From the NCBI GenBank assembly GCA_964354495.1, contig CAYHAA010000003.1, positions 28,606-60,605 on the forward strand: a DNA stretch of 32,000 nucleotides. Reading direction: 5' to 3'. Of this stretch, positions 3,051 through 8,673 are shown in pieces. A model generated the notes under the pieces. That model did not search any database. It was not told where the DNA came from and worked only from the letters and a program-made list of their open reading frames with translations. How positions within the stretch are numbered: position 1 is the stretch's first letter; every line of letters begins with the position of its first letter. The position numbers and the translations under genes were made by a program. Source of the stretch: an uncultured archaeon. Its GTDB lineage: Archaea; Asgardarchaeota; Thorarchaeia; Thorarchaeales; Thorarchaeaceae.

Positions 3051-3157
3051 TGGTGCCCCGACCGGGAATTTCAGAGGAATGGTATTCATCGCCTCTTTCG
3101 AACCCGGGTCTCAGGGTCGAAAACCCTAGATGCTGGGCCGAGCTACACCATCGGGGC
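3051..3157 (-). tRNA. tRNA-Glu(TTC) with encoded CCA and a 29-nt intron at position 59/60 (3068-3096)
   Basis: Minus strand: GCCCCGA/TCGGGGC acceptor stem, TAGGG-TTTTCGA-CCCTG anticodon arm, CCGGG/CCCGG T stem. The T loop is interrupted by a strict BHB (central helix TTCG/TGAA, bulges AAA and ATT, outer helix GAGG/CCTC). Cutting at the standard bulge positions restores TTCGAAT. Confidence 0.93.
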
Positions 3158-3773: not shown

Positions 3774-3879
3774 GGGCCCGTAGCTCAGCTTGGTAGAGCA
3801 GCCGTACATTCAGAACTCCTCTGGTGTGCTGACGCTCATAACCTGCGGGTCTCGAGTTCAAGTCTCGACGGGCCCACCA
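3774..3879 (+). tRNA. tRNA with CAT anticodon, probably tRNA-Ile2 (agmatidine type), with a 29-nt intron at position 30/31 (3805-3833)
   Basis: GGGCCCG/CGGGCCC acceptor stem, A73, CCA, loop CTCATAA. Strict BHB: h GAG/CTC, H CAGC/GCTG, bulges CGT and ACG, h' ACA/TGT. Mature length 77 nt. G1-C72 excludes initiator Met, and the GGGCCC acceptor stem matches archaeal Ile tRNAs. Confidence 0.88.
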
Positions 3880-5569: not shown

Positions 5570-5647
5570 CTGTTCGCCTCGAATATCAAATAGCAGCACG
5601 GCAACATATACACTTGGTAATGTGCATAGAGCCGGAACGGCAAGACA

Positions 5648-5660
5648 GCAACGTTAATAT
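5648..5660 (+). promoter_or_regulatory. BRE/TATA-like element GCAACGTTAATAT upstream of tRNA-Asn
   Basis: Ends 28 nt before the tRNA 5' end; identical to 3723-3735. Confidence 0.65.
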
Positions 5661-5687
5661 TGCTCTCACCGCCGACTCCCTACTCAA

Positions 5688-5908
5688 GCCATCGTGGCTC
5701 AGCTAGGTAGGCGACCTGCAGAGGTCGGCCTAAAGCGACAACATATTGGGCTTGTCCCAGTAGGTCGCTCCAGCCTGTTATCTTTCGATCAGGTGATCGG
5801 GAGCCAGACAGTTGTAATGCATCACGTTTCGTGGTGCGTGGCGAATGGTCGGAGGTTCGAGCGTTGACCTGCGTGCCAGGTCGACAGACAACCCTCCCGA
5901 TGGCGCCA
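5688..5908 (+). tRNA. tRNA-Asn(GTT) with five introns: 5711-5733 (22/23), 5740-5771 (28/29), 5781-5809 (37/38), 5816-5845 (43/44), 5862-5891 (59/60)
   Basis: Joined exons give GCCATCG TG GCTC AGCTAGGTA GAGC G ACAGC CTGTTAA GTTGT TGGTC GGAGG TTCGAGC CCTCC CGATGGC G CCA = 77 nt. All four stems pair, and the anticodon GTT and discriminator G73 fit Asn. Each removed segment is a hairpin with BHB spacing. Confidence 0.9.
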
Positions 5909-5934
5909 TTTGTATAAATGATTGTTTTACTAAA

Positions 5935-8673
5935 TCAATCGAACCAGTTAGACCATTCTTTCTTGTCTAGCCAGTTTTCGACGATTCCCCTCAGCCAATT
6001 CTCCACTTCATTTCGCTTCCGTTCATCATTGGGGGGACAAATAGTCCCCCATCGGATAGCATCATCCTTTCTGGCAGTGCCCGCGAGATTTCTCACTGAT
6101 ACTCTATCTGATTTTGGATAGTACCTGACCATAGTGGTTGACAATGATATTCTAATGCCTAGGCTCTCAGCAATCTTCTTTTCATCCTCAACGAGATTAT
6201 TCGGCGAGTCATGGATTGCCGCAATAAGATGTTTAGCTGCGTCCGCCTTCATAGAATCCTCACTGAACTGAAGCTTTTCCAGCTTGCCATAGGCTAGACT
6301 GTATTGCGGAACGAGGCCCTCTGTTTGCGTTCCTTCATCAATGATTAGATTGATCTCTGGTGTAGAAACGATTGACCTGAAATCGTGCTTACCACCTTCG
6401 TTGCCATCGTACAGTGCATGATTTCTGTTCCATGAGAAGCCTTTGCTTGTCGAGAAGTTGCCATCCTCCGGGATTAGTTCCTCCAGATACGCTCGTCGCG
6501 CCTCCTCAGACCAGTTCACGAATCCCTTAGGCAGACCGGGATTCTGTATAGATTTGCTCCCCGGTGTCATCCCTTCATGAATCATCATAAGACCGATCTG
6601 ATTCTGTATATGGACCTCATAGACACCCTTTCGGAACGGCCCCTCAAGTGTGATATCGCCAAAGTTACGGAGTATCTCTTGGACCTTTGCTATGCGCTCA
6701 AGACTTGCCTGATTGTACATGGTGTTCCCGGACTCCCCAAGGTAGCTGTCGCTGACAATGATGGCCGCAAGCCGTGCCTTGAGAACCTCTAGTTGTTTCC
6801 CTGACGGAAAACGCGGGTTGTCTATCCCGGCCTGCCCATTGATACCAGTGACCTTGTTCACACGACCCTCGAGGTCAGACAACCTACCATCCGTGCTGTC
6901 AAGATAGAGCCGAATGACCTTCCCCTCCAGCCGGGTGCTCTTCCGCTCTATGGGATGCGCTCGTGCAGCCGCTCCATCCCCTTCATCTGTCAGCTGCCGG
7001 ATGACTTCATTCAAGTGCCTCAGCGACTGAGACTTATCGCCCTCAGCCCCGAGTCTCCTGCCAAGGTCTTCAATGAAATTGGTGTATTCAAAACGATTGT
7101 TGAAGTAGTAGAACTGGTCCTCGTACACATCGACCAATTCATCCGTTCTTGATTTCGGAATCCATGTATAGACCCGACCGTTGACTGCTGCAACCCGGAG
7201 AGAATCTTCACCAATGCCAAGTCTCTCTGAGAGTGATCTCTCCAGCTCGCTTCTCTCTGTTCGAATGAGCCGCTCAATCGTCGCCATCGTTTCGCTGTGG
7301 ACTGCTGGTCTGAAGTCCGCGTATCGTACTCTCTTCGTTTCATCCAGCACGGTTCGATTGATGCCTTCCAGGGCGGCTGCGATATCATCAACAGAGATGT
7401 CCTTCCCATCTCTCAGGTGTTCGACAGCCCTTCGAATGACCTGCGAATCGATTTCATGAACTCCAGTTCTGTCTTCAGAACGCTCAGGTCGTGTTTTGAT
7501 TTCTTTCACTCTAAATTCTCTAAGAGCATCCTCACTAATCTGAGGACCCGACTCGTACCATTCTCTGAGCATCTTCTCCTCCTCGTGATGCCGAAGGTGC
7601 TTGATCAGCGTGGGCTCGACGCCTTTCCGCCACTCGCCTGCAATCCCGTGCCCAACATTGTATTTCTTGGCTTGTTCATCTCTCTTCAGTGAGAAGTCGC
7701 CTTTAATCTCGAAGTATATTCCACAATGACGATATCTTTCATCAAAATCAGGACTGTTTCGTTCCTGCTGATGCTTCTCAAGTAGACTATCTACATCCTT
7801 CATTGACTCAATCTTGAGTTCAGGAGGACCACCGTGGATAGTTTCGTACATGCGCCGAATCTCACGGTTCTCTACCTCTTTCACAAGCGATGGTTTGACT
7901 GAATTCCTGTCATCTGCAGAGTCAAAGTAAGATTTGACATCTTCAATCTGCAACTGATACGATCTTTTGTATTCCAGCTCCGGATAATGCTCACAGGCCT
8001 CTTTGAACTCCTCCCTCGTTCGTATCTCCCCAAAACGAGGCTTACTCTCCCGTAGGTCGTCAACTGGCGCGTTGCCCTCTCGATGTTCTCCAGATTTCAC
8101 AGGGTGCTCTCTTGGCACATCAGCATCAGCCCTCGCCAGTCCCTCCGACAGGGTCTCTCTGTTCCATTCCTTCTGGTCCCGCTCTGATAGAACTGACCTC
8201 ACCCGACCATCATTCAGCTCCTGAATCCTAATAGGCACCTCTCGGGCTGGCTCCCTCTCCTCAAGACTCTCCTGGATGTAGACCTTGGTCTTCTCTGCAC
8301 TATCTATTGCTACTGGTGCACTACGGGTAATCTCAGAAACCTCCGGACCCGAGCCACCCTCAACCTTCGTCTTCTCCGGATGGTCATCCCTGATGGACTC
8401 CAGCGCCTCTCTCAGCCTGCTCTCAGTGGACTCTCTCCGTTGCTCCATCCGCCCGAGGTCCTCAAGAGCCGCCGCCAACTTCTGCGCGATCCGCTCCTCC
8501 CTGCTTTCCCGCTGAGCCAGGTCTTCCAGTGCCTCCCGAAGGCGACCTTCCACAGGAGTCCGTGACTCGCCCGCCTCGTCGATGCGGGTCTCCCCCAGAT
8601 CCTCGGCCCCTCGGGGCAGGTCGTCCCCCTCACCTCGTCGTCCGCGCCGCTCGACCGACCGCCCCGCCATCAC
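5935..8673 (-). CDS. Large hypothetical protein (912 aa) with acidic coiled N-terminus, HTH-like segment and C-terminal double LAGLIDADG-like endonuclease domain
   Basis: LAAIIVSDS and LEELIPEDG motifs ~97 aa apart, the second preceded by K....GLPKGF..WSEEARRAYL as in intein-type DOD endonucleases. N-terminal repeats RLREALEDL/KLAAALEDL/RLREALESI. No intein splice residues seen. Confidence 0.6.
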   Translation of the reverse strand: MMAGRSVERRGRRGEGDDLPRGAEDLGETRIDEAGESRTPVEGRLREALEDLAQRESREERIAQKLAAALEDLGRMEQRRESTESRLREALESIRDDHPEKTKVEGGSGPEVSEITRSAPVAIDSAEKTKVYIQESLEEREPAREVPIRIQELNDGRVRSVLSERDQKEWNRETLSEGLARADADVPREHPVKSGEHREGNAPVDDLRESKPRFGEIRTREEFKEACEHYPELEYKRSYQLQIEDVKSYFDSADDRNSVKPSLVKEVENREIRRMYETIHGGPPELKIESMKDVDSLLEKHQQERNSPDFDERYRHCGIYFEIKGDFSLKRDEQAKKYNVGHGIAGEWRKGVEPTLIKHLRHHEEEKMLREWYESGPQISEDALREFRVKEIKTRPERSEDRTGVHEIDSQVIRRAVEHLRDGKDISVDDIAAALEGINRTVLDETKRVRYADFRPAVHSETMATIERLIRTERSELERSLSERLGIGEDSLRVAAVNGRVYTWIPKSRTDELVDVYEDQFYYFNNRFEYTNFIEDLGRRLGAEGDKSQSLRHLNEVIRQLTDEGDGAAARAHPIERKSTRLEGKVIRLYLDSTDGRLSDLEGRVNKVTGINGQAGIDNPRFPSGKQLEVLKARLAAIIVSDSYLGESGNTMYNQASLERIAKVQEILRNFGDITLEGPFRKGVYEVHIQNQIGLMMIHEGMTPGSKSIQNPGLPKGFVNWSEEARRAYLEELIPEDGNFSTSKGFSWNRNHALYDGNEGGKHDFRSIVSTPEINLIIDEGTQTEGLVPQYSLAYGKLEKLQFSEDSMKADAAKHLIAAIHDSPNNLVEDEKKIAESLGIRISLSTTMVRYYPKSDRVSVRNLAGTARKDDAIRWGTICPPNDERKRNEVENWLRGIVENWLDKKEWSNWFD

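Follow-up and report, generated by a model that had tools for sequence, protein, structure and literature searches.

A tRNA-Asn gene interrupted by five introns in a Thorarchaeaceae genome

Where is the asparagine tRNA of an archaeon whose genome assembly, 97.7% complete, yields no tRNA-Asn to standard gene finders? The question is raised by an uncultured member of the family Thorarchaeaceae (Asgardarchaeota), and was approached through a 32,000-nucleotide (nt) stretch of its genome (assembly GCA_964354495.1, contig CAYHAA010000003.1, positions 28,606 to 60,605 of the forward strand), hereafter the window. A preliminary description of the window, made from its letters only, proposed that positions 5688-5908 of the plus strand hold a tRNA-Asn(GUU) gene divided into six exons by five introns, that tRNA finders would probably overlook it and leave the genome seemingly devoid of tRNA-Asn, and that five introns might exceed the described maximum for one gene. 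The first two proposals hold and the third does not. As argued below, the locus is very probably the genome's only functional gene for tRNA-Asn(GUU).

The gene is 221 nt long, begins with GCCATCG and ends with CGATGGC-G-CCA. Re-analysis returned five introns of 23, 32, 29, 30 and 30 nt and six exons of 23, 6, 9, 6, 16 and 17 nt, with every coordinate exactly as first noted. Introns make up 65% of the gene and, in standard tRNA numbering, lie at positions 22/23, 28/29, 37/38, 43/44 and 59/60. Once they are removed, ARAGORN calls the remaining 77-mer tRNA-Asn(gtt), with all four stems fully paired and the CCA encoded, as holds for most tRNA genes in the genome (G000). The spliced sequence retains U8, A14, G18G19, U33, the G53-C61 pair and a TTCGA T-loop, so that a canonical cloverleaf is restored.

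Following the gene from its 5′ end, exon 1 (5688-5710, 23 nt) provides the 5′ strand of the acceptor stem, U8, the 5′ strand of the D-stem, the D-loop and G22, and is identical or nearly so in orthologues. Intron 1 (5711-5733, 23 nt) falls within the D-stem at 22/23. It is followed by exon 2 (5734-5739), the hexanucleotide AGCGAC, which covers tRNA positions 23-28 and is invariant in every orthologue having the flanking introns. Intron 2 (5740-5771, 32 nt) enters the anticodon stem at 28/29; exon 3 (5772-5780, 9 nt, AGCCTGTTA) spans positions 29-37 and contains the GTT anticodon. Intron 3 (5781-5809, 29 nt) occupies the canonical 37/38 site and is separated by a second 6-nt exon, exon 4 (5810-5815, AGTTGT, positions 38-43), from intron 4 (5816-5845, 30 nt), which lies at 43/44, the junction of the anticodon stem and the variable loop. 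Exon 5 (5846-5861, 16 nt) carries the variable loop, the 5′ strand of the T-stem and T-loop positions 54-59. Intron 5 (5862-5891, 30 nt) interrupts the T-loop at 59/60, and exon 6 (5892-5908, 17 nt) completes the molecule with C60, the 3′ strands of the T-stem and acceptor stem, the discriminator G73 and the CCA end. All of these features lie on the plus strand. The six exons are collinear within 221 nt and are preceded by one putative promoter, which sets the gene apart from split and permuted tRNA genes.

The promoter and leader region (5645-5687, plus strand) contains, as read from the sequence, a TATA-like box, TTAATATT, at 5654-5661, approximately 30 nt upstream from the tRNA 5′ end. The same AACGTTAATAT motif precedes a neighboring tRNA gene at window position 3774, and query positions 46-111, comprising the 5′ flank and exon 1, are the part conserved across relatives. 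The box is a candidate for the promoter element of the gene. On the 3′ side, the CCA is followed by a T-rich tail (5909-5930, plus strand), likely an archaeal terminator.

Each of the five introns conforms to bulge-helix-bulge (BHB) geometry. Without exception, the 5′ cut falls 1 nt ahead of the inner hairpin of the intron and the 3′ cut 6 nt past it, as originally proposed; the four intron nucleotides between the hairpin and the bulge face four exon nucleotides located 2 nt upstream of the 5′ cut. Re-measurement found the same pairings in the central helices as had been listed at the outset: AGGT/GCCT in intron 1 (4 of 4 paired, including one G-U), AGCG/CGCT in intron 2 (4 of 4), CTGT/CCAG in intron 3 (3 of 4), AGTT/GGCG in intron 4 (3 of 4, two of them G-U) and TTCG/AGAC in intron 5 (2 of 4). 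The inner hairpins comprise 6, 9, 10, 10 and 9 base pairs (bp), respectively, with one mismatch in that of intron 2. An outer helix formed by exon sequence is present in intron 3, where it corresponds to the anticodon stem, and in intron 5, where it is the T-stem and is separated from the 9-bp hairpin by exactly 7 nt on each strand; introns 1, 2 and 4 are of the relaxed (HBh′) type. The two hexanucleotide exons are entirely taken up by these motifs. Each consists of the four nucleotides of the central helix of the following intron plus two nucleotides of its bulge, while its first nucleotide doubles as the third bulge nucleotide of the preceding intron. Six nucleotides is the minimum spacing that permits two adjacent BHB motifs.

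This architecture escapes standard tools. ARAGORN found no tRNA in the unspliced gene within the window, and the Rfam tRNA model returned nothing there at gathering thresholds. Over the whole of G000 (3.3 Mb, 47.7% GC, 51 contigs), neither ARAGORN, run with or without its intron mode, nor the Rfam model recovered any tRNA-Asn, so the genome does indeed appear to lack one. A solver was applied that works de novo: every 7-bp acceptor pairing with N-CCA behind it serves as a starting point, introns are proposed solely on BHB geometry, and the subsets that leave a legal cloverleaf are enumerated, with a T-arm-first filter. Run genome-wide, it returned the Asn locus, divided by these very five introns, at the maximum cloverleaf score of 19. 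No second tRNA-Asn was found in G000 by ARAGORN, by the Rfam model, by blastn-short with the mature sequence or by the solver. Since no method reveals another copy, the gene should be essential. The solver requires an encoded CCA and an uninterrupted acceptor stem and missed about ten of the expected isoacceptors in G000, making the intron census of this genome a lower bound.

Loose criteria allow five-intron parses to arise by chance; might this one have done so, or be due to a faulty assembly? The solver does produce spurious solutions with five to seven introns in random stretches longer than 300 nt. These were set aside as noise: they score 15-17, mix introns of 14 to 97 nt and mostly fail with ARAGORN, whereas the Asn locus scores 19 and has uniform introns of 23-32 nt. 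A misassembly is countered by independent assemblies and public contigs that reproduce the locus. The orthologues described below refute, for practical purposes, any reading of the locus as coincidence or artefact, and we consider its probability negligible.

The family comprises 16 genera and 86 species-level genomes. In 46 of the 86, a match was obtained to a pattern that runs from exon 3 through the canonical intron to exon 4. The tRNA-Asn gene could be resolved by spliced alignment and the solver in 32 genomes of the family, including G000. These 32 genes carry one (3 genomes), two (8), three (9), four (10) or five introns (2), and all 96 introns fall at six fixed sites. Introns at 37/38 (site c) are present in all 32 genomes; those at 22/23 (site a) and at 28/29 (site b) each occur in 16, those at 59/60 (site f) in 20, those at 43/44 (site d) in 6, and those at 50/51 (site e), a position uninterrupted in G000, also in 6. 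The two five-intron genes use different combinations: sites a, b, c, d and f in G000, and sites a, b, c, d and e in G002. Wherever a site is devoid of intron, the exons abut at the predicted junction, as illustrated by exons 5 and 6, which are contiguous in G005 and G024. Intron presence and absence thus fall exactly at the junctions first claimed, which are reproduced in the 31 other genomes. The same comparison settles the position of the fourth intron. Orthologues lacking it read AGTTGT-TGGTC contiguously, which places the intron at 43/44 (5816-5845) and disposes of the alternative position, 44/45, entertained in the preliminary description. A fourth intron at 5819-5849, also considered, was ruled out by the same orthologues.

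The orthologues also bear on whether there are truly five introns. One insert might be retained in the mature tRNA, or introns 1 and 2 might leave as a single unit of about 61 nt together with exon 2. Some observations go in this direction: a naive spliced alignment of locus L001 gives one 56-nt gap over intron 1, exon 2 and intron 2, the solver likewise merges the first two introns in G002 and G055, and the minimum free energy (MFE) structure of the G000 precursor pairs intron 1 with intron 2. Such a merger, however, breaks the D-stem, leaving GCTC without its GAGC partner, and lowers the cloverleaf score from 19 to 17. Furthermore, site a is occupied without site b in G066, G054 and G068, and site b without site a in G005, G014 and G008. 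Since the two occur singly in relatives, they must represent separate introns flanking the invariant AGCGAC, and the parse treating introns 1 and 2 as one was rejected. As for a retained insert, additional sequence in a stem or in the T-loop is incompatible with a working tRNA. Altogether, a number of introns smaller than five seems very unlikely.

Mature tRNA-Asn sequences are 92.8% identical across the 32 genomes, and their variation is limited to compensatory pairs (4-69, 5-68, 49-65 and 50-64) and loop positions. Identity within intron classes a, b, c and f is only 53-62%. What is conserved among orthologues is intron structure rather than intron sequence. With introns anchored at their cut sites, inner-helix pairing is mostly 70-100% for sites a, c, d, e and f, and a position may show as many as 6 pair types; for a, c and f, the figures are mostly 75-100% and 2-6 pair types. 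Sliding the partner strand by 1-2 nt as a control brings pairing down to roughly 0-50%, and the signal is lost. At site c, for which 28 distinct intron sequences are available, each inner-helix position shows 82-100% pairing and 2-4 pair types. At site b the inner stem is looser, but the four central-helix positions are each paired in 15 or 16 of the 16 genomes. Compensation extends across the exon-intron boundary: AGGT/GCCT in G000 becomes CGGT/ATCG in G002, the A to C change in the D-loop being matched in the intron strand.

These data argue against the possibility that the locus is a decaying or silent pseudogene, with the working tRNA-Asn gene either among the 2-3% of the genome left unassembled or too disrupted for the searches to see. 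There is room for such a gene, as the assembly is not closed and a search demanding an encoded CCA and an intact acceptor let some isoacceptors escape; in addition, orthologues have a stronger central helix in intron 5. On the other hand, the exons are intact, and across the 32 genomes they bear the marks of purifying selection of the type acting on tRNAs, complete with compensatory changes. The promoter region is conserved as well, the same single-copy architecture is seen in most relatives, and the mature sequence used as a blastn-short query detected no second copy. We regard a pseudogene as highly improbable. One relative, G015, carries a second, truncated tRNA-Asn copy (L018, C205:66398-66574) in which introns a, b and c are present and divergence sets in inside the T-arm; this copy may be part of a gene duplicated at the border of a rearrangement or integration event.

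Further support for the junctions came from public sequencing runs. Logan contigs from runs X26 and X28 are 95-100% identical to the window through introns 1-3, then join position 5815 straight to TGGTCGG, with an insert next at the 50/51 site. In a contig from X25, a metatranscriptome library, position 5710 is joined straight to AGCGAC. This contig spans the TATA region and continues into upstream sequence that does not match the window, identifying it as the DNA-like locus of a relative rather than a transcript. All of the contigs covering the locus are of this kind, relatives' DNA-like sequences and not spliced RNA. They confirm the exon 1/exon 2 and exon 4/exon 5 junctions from data independent of the genome collection. 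In RNA run X20, nothing matched to the locus.

Several observations weigh against the view that the gene yields a tRNA through removal of five introns. Neither spliced nor precursor RNA was found in public runs; because the exons, at 6-23 nt, have no indexable words in common with the mature tRNA, such runs could not reveal the spliced product. The precursor as a whole folds more stably than expected by chance (z = -4.68 relative to dinucleotide shuffles) and a conformer displaying all five motifs is legal, yet its predicted energy of -81 to -83 kcal/mol compares with -100.4 for the MFE structure. The latter, lower in energy by about 18 kcal/mol, pairs the 5′ arm of intron 1 (CGACCT) with a second copy of AGGTCG(C), located in intron 2, instead of with the AGGTCG of intron 1 itself (window 5711-5771). 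In intron 5, just 2 of 4 central-helix pairs form, as against 3-4 of 4 in most orthologues. Finally, introns 1, 2 and 4, lacking an outer exon-exon helix, would need a broad-specificity enzyme, an activity suggested here by homology.

Enzymes of the appropriate type are encoded in G000. Two EndA paralogues (PF01974) are present, of 188 and 212 amino acids (aa), at C7:64663-65229 and C6:24412-25050. The shorter is closest to the catalytic subunits of A. pernix, S. tokodaii and P. aerophilum (E = 1e-42); it aligns without gaps to the A. pernix α subunit and retains the Tyr/His/Lys residues together with the specificity-loop Lys (equivalent to K44). The longer is without the catalytic His and looks like a structural, β-like subunit. 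By these sequence features, the pair matches the (αβ)2 type of endonuclease with a crenarchaeal-type specificity loop, and is probably able to handle relaxed motifs. An (αβ)2 EndA with an L1 loop, linked to cleavage of relaxed motifs, has been described in Asgard archaea (Kaneta et al. 2018, PMC5829648). The RtcB ligase is encoded as well (588 bits; C1:152240-153550).

The following pathway can be proposed. Transcription from the TATA-type promoter would generate a precursor of about 221 nt already bearing the 3′ CCA. Each short intron would fold into its own hairpin, and the 4-nt exon-intron central helix would set the splice sites within 3-nt bulges (BHB or HBh′). The (αβ)2 EndA would cut after the second nucleotide of each bulge, and RtcB would ligate the six exons into the canonical 77-nt tRNA. 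The 6-nt exons and the fact that the MFE disfavors the five-motif conformer make it likely that processing is stepwise, with ligation between cuts, or co-transcriptional.

How unusual is a tRNA gene with five introns? According to the tRNAscan-SE 2.0 study, archaeal tRNA genes have up to three introns (PMC8450103), the same figure as in the preliminary description. More recent work on other Asgard lineages shows that five is a tie with the reported maximum rather than a record. In Atabeyarchaeia and Freyarchaeia, 92-95% of tRNA genes have introns (Valentin-Alvarado et al. 2024, PMC11291895), with no more than four per gene and two in tRNA-Asn (Supplementary Data 4 of the same study). A motif-free census of 90 Asgard genomes (bioRxiv 10.64898/2026.10.13.758758, October 2026) reports, for Freyrarchaeaceae, Jordiarchaeaceae and Atabeyarchaeaceae, "up to five in a single gene"; other families have lower intron burdens, and the main text makes no mention of Thorarchaeota. 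We found no earlier report of a five-intron tRNA gene in Thorarchaeota. Also new here are the two exons of 6 nt, as short as adjacent BHB motifs permit, the probable paralogy of the introns at 43/44 and 50/51 and the conserved, putatively LAGLIDADG-fold gene downstream (both discussed below).

The gene belongs with the multi-intron tRNA genes of Asgard archaea: it comes from an Asgard lineage, is interrupted at sites that include 22/23 and 59/60, and is missed by ARAGORN and Rfam. It shares with them short BHB introns (about 20-30 nt), found both at canonical sites and at non-canonical ones such as those in the D-arm and T-arm; in both cases standard annotators miss the genes and related genomes differ by intron gain or loss. 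It differs in that Thorarchaeota lie outside the focal families of the census, and in having five introns where tRNA-Asn of Atabeyarchaeia and Freyarchaeia has two and the table published for these groups peaks at four. It is also an outlier in its own, moderately intron-rich genome. Combining credible solver results with the intron-less genes called by ARAGORN, the tRNA genes of G000 mostly contain zero to two introns; one has three and tRNA-Asn has five.

Two other systems offer useful comparisons. Thermoproteales (Pyrobaculum, Thermofilum and Caldivirga; Sugahara et al. 2008, through citations in PMC8450103 and PMC4090602) resemble the present case in having BHB or relaxed BHB introns at many positions, neighboring introns close together and an (αβ)2 EndA with a specificity loop. 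They belong to a different phylum, and the maximum given for them is three introns per gene (PMC8450103) as opposed to five here. No copies of the present introns were found in other genes of G000. The lineage studied here comes from metagenomes of a mesophilic wetland or sediment type, a weak habitat reading whose labels (wetland, soil, sediment) are based on small word shares and were not used as evidence. The red alga Cyanidioschyzon merolae has up to three BHB-type introns per tRNA gene, which reverse transcription PCR showed to be removed in an ordered, stepwise fashion (PMC3728597). There too, BHB-type introns can occupy the D-stem, the 37/38 site and the T-loop of one gene, and the stepwise removal provides a model for the processing of a five-intron precursor. 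The differences are a eukaryotic nucleus, a Sen complex, fewer introns, and splicing demonstrated by experiment, where it is predicted in our case.

For annotation, the gene accounts for the seeming absence of an essential tRNA from G000 and its relatives under standard tools. It extends extreme tRNA gene interruption to Thorarchaeota, a lineage that had not been highlighted for this trait. The orthologues constitute a natural series, in which one gene with six sites carries one to five introns in 32 genomes and nearly identical strains differ by single introns. The series is suited to dating intron gain and loss and to testing the endonuclease on 6-nt exons at the geometric minimum.

Where might the introns have come from? 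Those at 43/44 and 50/51, two sites 7 nt apart, are both 30 nt long and have a common hairpin core, CAC-N-TTCG-TG-GTG; their identity averages 68%. Such introns are seen at loci L045 (G002) and L049 (G017) and at other loci of the family. Background identity between other intron classes being 49-55%, the higher value suggests local copying, and the introns at the two sites are probably paralogous. Copies of the five introns elsewhere in G000 were searched for with blastn-short, and none were found.

A second lead is the convergent open reading frame (ORF) of 912 aa on the minus strand (5935-8673), which ends 26 nt after the CCA of tRNA-Asn. It adjoins the tRNA gene in at least 13 genomes of the family, from four genera, and its nearest named relatives are in metagenome-assembled genomes of Candidatus Thorarchaeota. 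Searches with the protein sequence gave nothing meaningful in Pfam (E up to 5) or against sequences in the PDB, and a search for contigs encoding the ORF returned no record. Its C-terminal domain of about 320 aa (window 5938-6903, minus strand) has ESM features resembling LAGLIDADG_3 clusters (0.91, 172 of 256 shared), and the top 50 PDB matches obtained with Foldseek were all LAGLIDADG proteins, among them I-Tsp061I (the best, E = 1e-5), PI-SceI, I-DmoI and WhiA, with a template-modeling score to target of about 0.5. The AF2 model on which this rests has a pLDDT (predicted local distance difference test) of only 73.6. Two conserved LAGLIDADG-like motifs, ARLAA..SD and AYLE.LIPEDG, with an invariant Asp, are present. 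We therefore assign the C-terminal domain a putative LAGLIDADG homing-endonuclease-like fold. The reading of the locus as a tRNA gene can dispense with the ORF, which may be relevant to the history of the introns.

In this regard, one can imagine that the tRNA-Asn locus is a hotspot of intron accumulation coupled to the free-standing, putatively LAGLIDADG-fold gene. Introns would interrupt, within the tRNA gene, the DNA target of the endonuclease or of an element carrying it, and would be fixed or spread by repair and co-conversion, in the manner of collaborative homing between free-standing endonucleases and introns. Local copying, for instance between 43/44 and 50/51, could be a source of new introns. 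Intron numbers support neither side: the mean is about 3.3 per gene in the 13 genomes with the ORF and about 2.8 in the 19 without, the genomes not being independent and some loci being cut by contig ends. We hold this coupling to be doubtful, with a small chance of being correct. If true, it would show concretely how archaeal tRNA introns arrive, a question not settled in the 2026 census preprint. The similarity of the 43/44 and 50/51 introns and the linked gene with its putative LAGLIDADG fold are, in any event, testable leads on intron origin.

Paralogues of the LAGLIDADG-like domain, 28-34% identical, occur elsewhere in G000, at C18:5260-6180 (minus strand), C14:16612-17466, C36:169-768 and C23:9-716. 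The first of these converges on a tRNA-Phe(GAA) gene with two introns (C18:5058-5196, plus strand); no tRNA was found beside the other three. The orthologues of the ORF in G001 (L053:1631-2587) and G054 (L031:1674-2585) contain in-frame stops near the C-terminus, two and one respectively, which may reflect decay, sequencing error or some other cause.

Other interrupted tRNA genes were encountered in the course of the analysis. A tRNA-Glu(TTC) gene with a 29-nt intron in its T-loop, at window positions 3051-3157 on the minus strand, is missed by ARAGORN even in intron mode. The tRNA gene at 3774-3879 (plus strand) has a CAT anticodon and, within the anticodon stem, a non-canonical intron of 29 nt (3805-3833); by forcing a canonical intron, ARAGORN in intron mode turns it into a miscalled tRNA-Glu(ttc) whose position 33 is an A. 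The second most interrupted gene recovered in G000 specifies tRNA-Val(CAC) and contains three introns, of 29, 64 and 30 nt (C18:38527-38724, plus strand).

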